Below, in pieces: positions 13,232-15,502 of a stretch of 64,000 nt of DNA. Source of the stretch: an uncultured Chloroflexia bacterium (GTDB taxonomy: Bacteria; Chloroflexota; Limnocylindria; Limnocylindrales; CSP1-4); the NCBI GenBank assembly GCA_963713975.1, contig OY970218.1:2304001-2368000 (forward strand). Reading direction: 5' to 3'. Numbering within the stretch: the first letter of the stretch is position 1; every line of letters begins with the position of its first letter. The notes under the pieces were generated by a model that searched no databases, had not been told where the DNA came from, and worked only from the letters and a program-made list of their open reading frames with translations. Both the position numbers and the translations under genes were made by a program.

Positions 13232-13264
13232 GTGAGTTGCCACCACCCCGGGATCTTCGCGTGA
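13232..13264 (+). CDS. Putative leaderless uORF MSCHHPGIFA coupled to the aminotransferase
   Basis: TACAAT (13220-13225), 6 nt, then GTG; its stop TGA overlaps the GTG at 13261. Lies within an 11-bp hairpin (13224-13254). Confidence 0.4.
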   Translation: MSCHHPGIFA

Positions 13265-14607
13265 GCGGCCGCGTCTTCCTCCGCTCCGCCTGGCCGGACC
13301 CGGCCGTCGCCGTGTCGGCGCACGACTCCACGATCGTCGATGCCGGCGGGCGGGAATACCTCGATGCCGCCGGCGGTGCGGTGGTCGTCAACGTGGGACA
13401 CGGACGACACGAGGTTGCCGCGGCCGCGGCCGAGCAGGCTGGCCGCCTCGCCTACGCCCATGGGTCCGCATTCACGACCGAGGCGCTCGAGCAGTACGCG
13501 GCGGCGGTGGGTCCGCACCTGCCCATTGACGACCCCTTCCTGTACCCGGTCTCGGGCGGCTCCGAGGCCATTGAGACGGCACTCAAGATGGCACGGGCCG
13601 TGCACCTGGCCCAGGGCGATGTCGACCGCCAGATCGTGTTCGCCCGGTGGGGGAGCTACCACGGCAACACGCTCGGAGCGCTGGACCTGTCCGGCCGTCG
13701 GCCGCTGCGCCGTCCGTACGAGGGCTGGCTCGGCCGCTTCCGGCACGTGAGCGCCGCCTACCCGTACCGAGCGGACGAGCCGGGCTCGCAGGCGCTCGGC
13801 ACCGCCGCCGAGCTGGCCGATGAGCTGGAGCGGGCGATCAGCGCGGCCGGGCCGGGGACGGTTGCCGCATTCGTGGGTGAGCCGATCGTCGGTGCGACGC
13901 TGGGTGCCGTGGAGCCGCCGGACGGCTACTGGCCGGCGATCGCCGAAGTCTGCCGGCGCCACGGGGTGCTGCTGATCGCGGACGAGGTGATGACGGGCTT
14001 CGGGCGGACCGGTGCCTGGTTTGCGATGGACCACTACGGCGTCCGACCGGATCTCCTGGTGGCAGCCAAGGGCGCGACGTCGGGCTACTGGCCGTTCGGG
14101 TTCGTGGCGACGTCCGGCGACGTCCGGGCCGCGATCTCCCGCGGCGGCGCGTTCGTGCACGGGTTCACGTACTCGCACCAGCCGGTCGCGGCCGCCGTCG
14201 CGCACGAGGTGCTGCGGATCATCGAGGCCGAGTCGCTGGTCGAGGCGTCCGCGGTCAAGGGCGAGCGCCTGCTGGCGCTGTTGCGCGCGCGGCTGGGCGA
14301 CCACCCGGCGGTCGGCGACATCCGCGGGCGCGGGCTGATGGTCGGCGTGGAGCTGGTGCAGGACCGCGAGACCAAGGCGGCGTTCCCGCGTGGCGCCCGA
14401 CTGACCGAGACCGTGGTCCGCATCGCCCACGGGCGCGGGCTGCTGCTCTACTCCGGGACCGGGAACGCGGACGGGACGAACGGCGACGTCATCCTGCTCG
14501 GGCCGCCGTTCGTGGTCACGGACGCGGAGCTGGCACGGATCGTGGACGGCCTCGGCGATGCGCTGGACCTGGCGCTGGAGACCGTCGAGACGCTCGGGCG
14601 TCCCTGA
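13261..14607 (+). CDS. Class III PLP aminotransferase
   Basis: YLDAAGG..VGHG, SGGSEAIE, SYHGNT, LIADEVMTGFGRTG, AAKG and RGRGLM. Confidence 0.92.
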   Translation: MSGRVFLRSAWPDPAVAVSAHDSTIVDAGGREYLDAAGGAVVVNVGHGRHEVAAAAAEQAGRLAYAHGSAFTTEALEQYAAAVGPHLPIDDPFLYPVSGGSEAIETALKMARAVHLAQGDVDRQIVFARWGSYHGNTLGALDLSGRRPLRRPYEGWLGRFRHVSAAYPYRADEPGSQALGTAAELADELERAISAAGPGTVAAFVGEPIVGATLGAVEPPDGYWPAIAEVCRRHGVLLIADEVMTGFGRTGAWFAMDHYGVRPDLLVAAKGATSGYWPFGFVATSGDVRAAISRGGAFVHGFTYSHQPVAAAVAHEVLRIIEAESLVEASAVKGERLLALLRARLGDHPAVGDIRGRGLMVGVELVQDRETKAAFPRGARLTETVVRIAHGRGLLLYSGTGNADGTNGDVILLGPPFVVTDAELARIVDGLGDALDLALETVETLGRP

Positions 14608-14648
14608 CGAACCTCAGCGGCGGACTGGCGGCGTCCGTCGGTCTGGCG

Positions 14649-14928
14649 GCGGGTGGGTCGCCCGCGAGTCCGCGCCCGCGACGTGCGGAGCCCCGAAACC
14701 CGAACGATCCAAGGCCGGTCCCGGCCGCCGGGCGGCCAATGGAACGTTCGTAGCTTCTGCCTTGCTCGCTATGGCGAGCACCGGGAGCGCCTGATCGCCG
14801 AATCCTGGCCCGCTGCTCGTCTGGGCGAGCGAGACAGCGGTTGTGGGCCCTTGTTCGCTCGCGTCGCGGCCGGGGGAAGCACGCGGATGGCTCGCGCCGC
14901 GGCCGGGGACAGCCCGCCGCCCACTCGC
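14649..14928 (+). ncRNA. Candidate structured RNA or miniature repeat element (unassigned)
   Basis: Three nested long-range stems enclose four hairpins in a non-coding gap between convergent genes. Wobble pairs favour the + strand. Confidence 0.4.
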
Positions 14929-14941
14929 GCCCGCCGGGCGC

Positions 14942-15502
14942 CTACCGGCGCGCCGAAGACGCGCGGATCACCACGAAGCCGCCCAGGCCGAGCAGAATCA
15001 GCGGCCAGAACAGCTCGCTGAAGCCCGGGATCGCGAACGACGACACCCCGATCAGCGCGAGGATGGCGCCCAGCCCCGCTTGCCAGCCAACGCCGCCGCC
15101 GCTGACCGCTCGGACGAGCGCGATGAACAGGAACGCGAGGCCCAGGCACAGCGTCCCGAGGCCCGACTGGTCCTGCACACCGGCCGCGACGAGCAGGTCA
15201 GGCGCGGCGAGCGCGGTGATGATCGCGCCAAGGTAGAGGGATCCGACCCCCCGGTTCACCAGCCACGAGACGAGGAACGCCACACCCACTGCGAGGAACA
15301 CCAGGGAGCCCGCCGTCTCGAGCGCCGGGAATGCGGTCCGCAGCAGGAGCAGGACGCCGAATACGAGGAGGAAGATCCCGAACCAGGGCAGGCGGCTCCG
15401 GCCCCGTGGTGCGCCGCTTCCGGTCCACTCCCAAGAGTAGGCACGGACCACGTCGCCCTCGATCACGTCGCCCGTGACGGGCGTCTCCCGTCGCTCGGTC
15501 AT
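14942..15502 (-). CDS. Membrane protein (LiaF/DUF5668-like TM repeats)
   Basis: About 5-6 hydrophobic segments, WFGIFLLVFGVLLLL and LFWPLILLGLG; GGAGGA SD. Confidence 0.75.
   Translation of the reverse strand: MTERRETPVTGDVIEGDVVRAYSWEWTGSGAPRGRSRLPWFGIFLLVFGVLLLLRTAFPALETAGSLVFLAVGVAFLVSWLVNRGVGSLYLGAIITALAAPDLLVAAGVQDQSGLGTLCLGLAFLFIALVRAVSGGGVGWQAGLGAILALIGVSSFAIPGFSELFWPLILLGLGGFVVIRASSARR

Follow-up and report, generated by a model that had tools for sequence, protein, structure and literature searches.

The window analysed here is a 64,000-nt stretch of very GC-rich DNA from the 3.62-Mb genome (G000) of an uncultured bacterium of the Limnocylindria (Chloroflexota), and our subject is a palindromic repeat that occupies most of the 334-nt intergenic spacer at 14608..14941. 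Related genomes are labelled with G-numbers and individual stretches of DNA with L-numbers, and gene neighbours and starts are taken from our own GC3-based gene calls. The spacer separates two convergent genes. On the + strand, a class-III aminotransferase gene (13261..14607; Pfam PF00202, E 1.1e-81) ends in a TGA stop at 14605-14607 and has orthologs in 70 of the 70 genus genomes searched. Facing it on the - strand is a gene for a 186-aa predicted membrane protein (14942..15502), which matches no Pfam family and has syntenic orthologs of 70-80% identity in the 11 relatives examined. An earlier note, made from the letters of the window alone, had described 14649..14928 as a nested multi-stem RNA candidate and proposed that it was a novel non-coding RNA (ncRNA), a ribozyme or a structured miniature element. 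The last of these options fits, in that the region matches a dispersed family of palindromic non-coding repeats; it is probably not a dedicated RNA gene or ribozyme. We read it, at a probability of about 0.68, as one member of a family of small palindromic repeats that lie between genes and are restricted to a lineage; the family would be of the kind represented by repetitive extragenic palindrome (REP) dimers, bacterial interspersed mosaic elements (BIMEs), REP doublets forming hairpins (REPINs) and hairpin-type miniature inverted-repeat transposable elements (MITEs).

No gene was placed across 14649..14928 by the gene caller, and a coding frame is excluded in the core common to the three closest copies because these differ by single-base indels, so that the original statement that no credible coding sequence lies here is borne out. 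Terminator-like sites (a GC-rich hairpin followed by a U tract) numbered zero on either strand between 14300 and 15300, and no promoter-like site was found at the locus. Rfam gave 0 matches at gathering score across the whole window; at E<=10 over 14400-15200 it returned only mir-1538 (E 1.8) and MEG8_1 (E 8.2), both of them chance hits.

Fold of the window copy

The three nested long-range stems that had been described are present and pair as stated, joining 14649-57 to 14920-28 (GCGGGTGGG/CCCACTCGC), 14663-70 to 14889-96 (CGCGAGTC/GGCTCGCG) and 14676-85 to 14860-69 (CCGCGACGTG/CGCGTCGCGG), each with one G-U pair. Their 5' strands lie within 14649..14685 and their 3' strands within 14860..14928 of the + strand. 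They pair in the window copy and are not kept as pairs in its two paralogs, L002 and L003, which are introduced below. Over these three sequences, the window copy counted, 44%, 62.5% and 77% of the cells of the outer stems are paired, and covariation in the outer stems is no better than in shuffles, the observed values being reached by 105 and 288 of 500. The caution that high GC favours chance stems, already voiced in the earlier note, applies to these three stems.

Inside them, the hairpins CGAACG/CGTTCG (14701-14750) and TGCTCGC-TATG-GCGAGCA (14763-14780) are both present in the sequence. Four inner hairpins had been proposed, and local hairpins are indeed possible as alternatives, but the minimum-energy fold is one long fold-back rather than four hairpins, and in it the left arm of the hairpin at 14763-80 pairs with the right arm of the hairpin at 14810-40. 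The 280-nt region folds at -157.4 kcal/mol on the + strand against a dinucleotide-shuffle mean of -146.2 (z -2.17; 5 of 200 shuffles as good), with z -1.70 on the - strand (10 of 200 as good). The 162-nt core at 14717-14878 reaches -90.1 kcal/mol on the + strand (z -3.09; 3 of 200 shuffles as good) and -75.4 kcal/mol on the - strand (z -2.29; 4 of 200). The fold of the window copy beats chance modestly, and the + strand of the core is 15 kcal/mol more stable than the - strand because its mismatches are G-U.

Copies, four-box design and distribution

BLAST of the spacer against its own genome returned two more copies, L002 and L003, that are 77% and 79% identical to it. The three have in common a core of ~170 nt with 87% column identity, broken by single-base indels. 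We built two covariance models, R1 from these three sequences and R2 from six (the same three and three matches in genome G051), and both score the core repeat of the window at 165-168 bits. R2 finds 10 loci in the own genome and a motif search adds an eleventh at 539.6 kb, giving 11 copies, of which those at 421 kb and 539 kb were shown at full length.

The unit common to all family members is a long imperfect palindrome of ~160-165 nt, placed at 14719..14884 (+ strand) by its homology boundaries with L003, by R1 and R2 and by the fold. Homology with L002 extends over 14647..14902 (genome 2318647-2318902; + strand) in a local alignment of ~240 nt at 85% identity. The additional outer arms, ~72 nt on the 5' side and 18 nt on the 3' side, are common only to this closest paralog and are specific to the subfamily.

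An alignment of 25 copies (A7, made with MAFFT) reveals a succession of four conserved boxes, P1 to P4, separated by three variable spacers, v1 to v3; the identities given for them are family-wide mean pairwise values. P1 (GGCCGCC-N-GGCGGCC in the family) is a terminal palindrome that forms the left inverted terminus; in the window it reads GGCCGCC-G-GGCGGCC at 14723..14737 (identity 0.78). P2 (GCTCGC-loop-GCGAGC) is a hairpin or palindrome, represented in the window by TGCTCGC-TATG-GCGAGCA at 14763..14780 (0.69). P3 is the P2 palindrome a second time, GCTCG-TCTGG-GCGAGC at 14815..14830 (0.76), 51 nt from P2. P4 mirrors P1 as the right terminus, with which P1 pairs in the fold-back, and has the sequence GCTCGCG-T-CGCGGCC at 14857..14871 (0.71). 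The spacers v1, v2 and v3 have identities of 0.50, 0.35 and 0.52. The central one, v2 (CCTGATCGCCGAAT, 14781..14814), is the tip of the fold-back and is kept within the subfamily, while across the family it is essentially random.

The geometry of the unit is close to fixed. Its length is 161-164 nt in 23 of the 25 copies, the other two carrying an insertion of 10-12 nt. In G051, all 11 P2-P3 pairs that a motif search with <=1 mismatch returned have a spacing of exactly 52 nt, and in the 164-nt copies of that genome the box centres fall at 14, 56, 108 and 150, at intervals of 42, 52 and 42 bp; the corresponding distances in the window copy are 41.5, 51 and 41.5. The P2/P3 motif, again with <=1 mismatch, has 8 occurrences in G000 and 28 in G051, and its reversed control has 0. 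A CRISPR-like reading of the constant 52-nt spacing is ruled out by the presence of only two repeats per unit, by the mirror symmetry and by the lack of an array.

Because the boxes are mirror-symmetric, one strand can fold either as local hairpins or as one long fold-back, and the nested stems first described are such a palindromic fold-back. A single end-to-end fold-back is the minimum-energy fold of many of the 25 copies, and the remainder adopt it only partly. The loops of P2 and P3 are 4-5 nt long and mostly CATCA. Both are TGATG in three copies and one loop is flipped in one further copy, which is what inversion between the arms of a palindrome would give. Short tandem duplications that include the terminal palindrome also occur: three 21-nt units (GCATCGGGCGGCCGCCGGGCG) adjoin the 3493-kb copy (G000:C1 ~3493120-3493190, L118), and in G051 (L131 and L153) the copy in the orthologous spacer has mirrored duplications on both arms. 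This pattern suggests slippage or arm-to-arm copying at the termini.

The family is narrowly distributed. R1, run across all 70 genus genomes, matched only G000 and G051, the latter with three weak hits. R2, run on 41 genus genomes, found the repeat at 21 distinct loci of G051 and at a single locus of G079; the other 38 gave none. The five closest relatives gave 0 matches at E<=0.1 (150 candidates scored in each), and 150 other genomes of the order, from 28 genera, gave 0 at E<=0.001 under stricter filters. A strict double-P2 pattern was found at 6 loci, confined to one Limnocylindrales metagenome-assembled genome among the species genomes scanned, and a P3-to-P4 pattern at 71 metagenome loci, 6 of which are true members by R2. 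Plasmid and phage collections held no family match, and BLAST of the spacer against 40 relatives gave only GC-rich chance matches of 22-38 nt. A scan of the species genomes with two words of the window subfamily was set aside: its 85 loci were about as many as the chance estimate, and nhmmer confirmed none (best E 0.026).

Comparison with known palindromic repeats

The family is a new, low-copy member of the known kind of palindromic intergenic repeat, without a recognisable transposase. No description of repeats in Limnocylindria was found in the literature searched, from which the motif strings of the family were also absent. Our comparison with the REP superfamily rests on published descriptions.

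In the survey by Di Nocera, De Gregorio and Rocco (2013, PMC3733652), REPs are 20-40-bp tagged stem-loops, often arranged as mirror dimers able to form one large hairpin, and are located mainly between convergent and co-directional open reading frames; the survey treats a CGTC-tagged superfamily without a dedicated transposase. As in the REP dimers so described, P2 and P3 are short stem-loops (an 8-bp stem when two flanking pairs are counted, with a loop of 4-5 nt), mirror-paired units fold separately or as one hairpin, spacers are of similar length and different sequence, most copies lie between convergent or co-directional genes (22 of 25) and no dedicated transposase was found. Unlike those dimers, our family has a low copy number (1-21 loci per genome), fixed termini in P1 and P4 and a nearly fixed total length.

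The same descriptions define the CGTC-tagged superfamily by the tag CGTC (variants TGTC and CCTC), by A-T as the first two stem pairs and by a short CCA tail (PMC3733652). A (C/T)GT(C/T) consensus stands just outside the P2 and P3 stems of our family and resembles this tag, whereas exact CGTC or TGTC stands 5' of P2 in only 9 of the 25 copies and 3' of P3 in 5 of them. The two opening positions of the stem read CT, TC or TT, opposite AG, GA or AA/GG, and there is no CCA tail. With the tag in a minority of copies, no A-T start to the stem and no CCA tail, membership in the superfamily as there described is not established. How REP-type repeats without a transposase are maintained was left as an open question by the 2013 survey (PMC3733652).

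Bertels and Rainey reportedly described REPINs in 2011 together with RAYT tyrosine transposases. As published descriptions have them, REPINs have in common with our family a doublet of inverted palindromes that forms one long hairpin, a dispersed intergenic location and the lack of target-site duplication. The family differs from the REPIN/RAYT system in that no Y1/RAYT gene is present in the three carrier genomes, so that the definition of this system, which calls for a RAYT gene flanked by the repeats, fails, that there is no cloud of near-identical copies, and that a GTAG tag occurs only in the window copy (14750-53), L002 having GTGG and L003 GCGG at the aligned place.

Escherichia coli BIMEs, RIME, ERIC and Correia-type elements are mosaics of short palindromic modules, ~100-170 bp long, in transcribed intergenic DNA, and they bind host proteins (gyrase, IHF) or act as RNA hairpins. 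Our family likewise combines several short palindromic modules in intergenic DNA, but it has no sequence relation to these elements and belongs to a different host phylum. With MITEs it has in common small size, non-coding content, inverted termini that pair (P1 and P4), sites that are filled in one species and empty in another, and subfamilies. It departs from them in that no target-site duplication was seen, no parent insertion sequence with matching termini was found and the copies are old and divergent; with no target duplication seen and no parent element found in searches for PF01797, PF07282 and PF01548, the family is not shown to be a MITE.

Context, mobility and competing explanations

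All 26 copies examined are intergenic, nine of them between convergent genes, 13 between co-directional and three between divergent genes, with one for which the two neighbours were not both called. Among the 13 co-directional copies seven are sense and six antisense, a random orientation with respect to transcription. L002 is flanked by divergent genes for a thiamine pyrophosphate (TPP) enzyme and a LacI regulator, and L003 sits inside a 2-oxoacid dehydrogenase operon, antisense to it. Sequence upstream of the copies is not conserved.

The non-Watson-Crick pairs of the stems had been reported as G-U on the + strand and as A-C mismatches on the other. This strand bias is real for the window copy and its two young paralogs, whose + strands fold better by 14.7, 22.8 and 8.2 kcal/mol and whose fold-backs contain 41 G-T against 15 A-C mismatches. 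It is confined to this subfamily, however, and disappears across the 25 copies, where the strand difference averages -0.17 kcal/mol, the modelled strand is favoured in 11 of 25 and the mismatches number 197 against 172. Since the three copies have one ancestor, their bias amounts to a single observation. Applied to the MAFFT alignment of 25 sequences, RNAalifold recovered no more than two local hairpins, 10 pairs in all, since the spacers are out of register, and the fold-back was therefore tested on a fixed antidiagonal and on a named structure. In 14 ungapped 164-nt copies the antidiagonal has 750 paired positions out of 1120, where column composition predicts 756.6; pairing being no higher than composition predicts, departures from the palindromic consensus are not compensated. 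Some copies contain the string CUGAUGA...GAAAC, but a hammerhead-like reading was rejected because the order of elements is wrong by eye and there is no Rfam match.

Dispersal of the repeat is indicated by subfamilies that are 77-83% identical at unrelated loci (window/L002/L003, 3224/1783 and 3069/768), with homology between paralogs stopping sharply at P1 and P4 save for the outer arms of the window copy and L002. The closest relative, G013, is 88% identical to G000 over a 3.2-kb gene in which G051 is 80% identical. At the L003 site, in the spacer between the DUF and E2 genes, G000 has ~263 nt where G013 has ~44 nt, with flanks alignable on both sides; the comparison is bounded by the stop of a small upstream gene and by a conserved leader (CGCCGTCGCGGGATGCGC...). 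By sequence comparison the L003 site is filled in G000 and empty in G013. The spacer of the window copy, followed through relatives with syntenic flanks, measures ~10-20 nt in four of the 11 (G069, G070, G017 and G082), 60-110 nt in three, ~290-340 nt with an unrelated element in two and ~1 kb in G013.

Several results weigh against a mobile repeat. Five of the 11 copies in G000 adjoin the same orthologous genes as copies in G051: the window and 421-kb copies occupy the same interval, the 3224-kb copy has the same flank, and the 2471-kb and 3493-kb copies are one gene away. One G051 copy lies in the very spacer of the window copy and in the same orientation. L002, L003 and the copies at 1783, 3069 and 768 kb have no shared-site partner in G051. 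Such sites could reflect long retention in place and so suggest a host function, not mobility; old copies inherited from a common ancestor, with later duplications in G000, would give this pattern and imply that the boxes are constrained where they stand. The contrast between boxes (0.69-0.78 identity) and spacers (0.35-0.52), together with the nearly constant unit length, is not expected from plain neutral decay of dead copies. No target-site duplication was seen at five paralog-pair junctions or at the filled/empty pair of G000 and G013, where a flank divergence of 12-17% limits resolution. Six-frame searches found no Y1/RAYT (PF01797) in G000, G051 or G079, the control matching 6 of 14 named genomes; the TnpB zinc-ribbon (PF07282) and IS110 (PF01548) domains are absent from G000, these being the families searched besides; and three clustered copies in G051 are surrounded by ordinary genes of metabolism and regulation. 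Copies within G051 are at most 71% identical to each other (median 61%) and so give no sign of recent activity there. Finally, at 39 chosen pairs of the long fold-back in 25 sequences, 86.3% of cells are paired against 84.1%, and double-sided cells number 43 against 27 +/- 5.2, a value reached by 0 of 500 shuffles; this excess is weak evidence because the copies are related through subfamilies, which can mimic covariation without structure.

One alternative to a dispersed repeat is that the stems arose by chance in GC-rich intergenic DNA and mark no real feature, which would agree with the z of only -2.17 of the 280-nt fold and with the 29 inverted pairs counted in 451 nt, as many as expected at 73% GC; yet eleven copies in the own genome, 21 loci in G051, scores of up to 168 bits and a box motif found 8 and 28 times, against 0 for its reversed control, reduce this to a negligible probability, and the homologous copies had already ruled it out. 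A structured ncRNA expressed from the + strand, as a small RNA, cis-regulatory element or ribozyme, would account for the energy advantage of that strand in the window copy and its paralogs, for their G-T excess, for the core z of -3.09 and for a consensus fold of the three sequences that reaches -85.5 kcal/mol on the + strand and -65.9 on the -. We nevertheless regard it as very improbable, as the bias goes back to one ancestor and vanishes over the 25 copies, L003 runs antisense to its operon and L002 has divergent neighbours, Rfam offers nothing beyond two chance hits at E<=10, upstream flanks are not conserved, the outer stems are not kept in the paralogs, and close relatives do without the family. 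With no promoter-like or terminator-like site, random orientation and strand-neutral energies besides, the ncRNA or ribozyme among the options of the earlier note is not supported.

A further alternative is a host-recruited DNA site. Here a dimeric DNA-binding protein, for instance one with an architectural, topological or termination role, would bind the four dyad boxes as a phased array held by selection, and the copies would be sites of the chromosome instead of selfish DNA. Conserved boxes and near-invariant unit length agree with it, as do box centres 42, 52 and 42 bp apart, or about 4, 5 and 4 helical turns; P2 and P3 loops that can be flipped (CATCA or TGATG) with the rest intact, as expected for recognition of duplex DNA; and the neighbourhoods common to five of 11 G000 copies and copies of G051, those five being exactly the ones that lack a young paralog partner of higher similarity. 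The family is missing, however, from the five closest relatives, G013 included, and from 150 genomes of the order, so that any host function would need to be a dispensable one. At shared sites the copies resemble each other no more closely (~0.55-0.58) than at unrelated sites (background 0.57-0.61), and the shared spacers carry other, unrelated filler in further species; they may thus be permissive landing spots, where repeated landing can explain the coincidence and its odds are higher. No candidate protein was identified, and the helical phasing could itself be coincidence. We hold a host site to be distinctly unlikely. A broader formulation, also unlikely in our judgement, is that the family, far from being junk in decay, is a constrained four-box module of DNA (or of single-strand hairpins) whose boxes and spacing were held since before the two species split while its spacers were randomised; it could be a protein-binding array that part of the genus has lost, or a mobile element that depends on hairpins and uses an enzyme other than the known Y1/RAYT transposases.

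Under the preferred reading of a dispersed palindromic repeat, the unit would spread, or would have spread, by occasional copying into permissive intergenic spacers, via a hairpin or cruciform intermediate or through an enzyme that recognises the boxes. The boxes would be conserved because they are recognised by the copying process or by a host protein. The window locus would then yield no dedicated RNA product, and read-through transcripts of either convergent gene would at most end in a long stable hairpin. On this reading a spurious candidate for a new ncRNA or ribozyme drops out, and the locus illustrates how a palindromic repeat, where GC content is very high, can imitate an elaborate RNA fold down to an apparent G-U strand signature. 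The analysis also adds a low-copy repeat family of unusually regular four-box design from an uncultured lineage of the Chloroflexota. Should a protein partner lie behind the conserved boxes and their spacing, this repeat would offer a handle on how transposase-less REP-type repeats persist.

The searches also brought up other sequences around these sites. Genes for IS110-type transposases (PF01548) occur several times in G051 (L235/L237, G051:C121) and G067 (L236/L238, G067:C1); being absent from G000 and present in G067, where R1 finds no match, they do not track the repeat family. The spacer between the aminotransferase and membrane-protein genes contains in G052 (L148 ~2690-2980) and G016 (L152 ~1075-1415, minus) another conserved element of ~250 nt, with two GACTGTCAGTCA-like words and long complementary segments, which is unrelated to the P1-P4 family and has no Rfam match at E<=0.01. 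The same spacer is filled in G005 (L150 ~2665-2775) by 12-nt tandem units (GACGCAGAAGCG and variants). Where G000 and G051 carry the 421-kb family copy, G013 has ~390 nt of filler (G013:C27 ~828435-828823, L245) with four loosely repeated words, CCAGATGTCCGTGTCACGGCCCGT, TCAGATGCACACCTGGCGGTCCGT, GGCAGACGTCCACCCCGCGGCCCGT and an inverted GACATCTGGCGG, and this filler may represent another repeat family. To the right of the 421-kb copy, G000:C1 ~421230-421390 (L122) retains no more than the final part of a gene found complete in G069 (aligned end ...CCCCCAGACGAATCCGAGATGGTCCCA), and the sequence appears to be a gene remnant beside the repeat.

Two further observations concern the sites of the paralogs. 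A conserved leader, CGCCGTCGCGGGATGCGC(G/A)ACACTAGG, lies ~45-60 nt upstream of the start of E2 (the 2-oxoacid dehydrogenase acyltransferase) in G000, G013 and G057 (L003 ~1712-1784 and the matching place in L244 and L243), and it may be a promoter or operator retained beside the insertion site. The word AATCGATTAC occurs at L002 1168-1182 and 1855-1869, on either side of the divergent TPP-enzyme/LacI-regulator spacer, where it may provide two operator half-sites for the LacI-family regulator.

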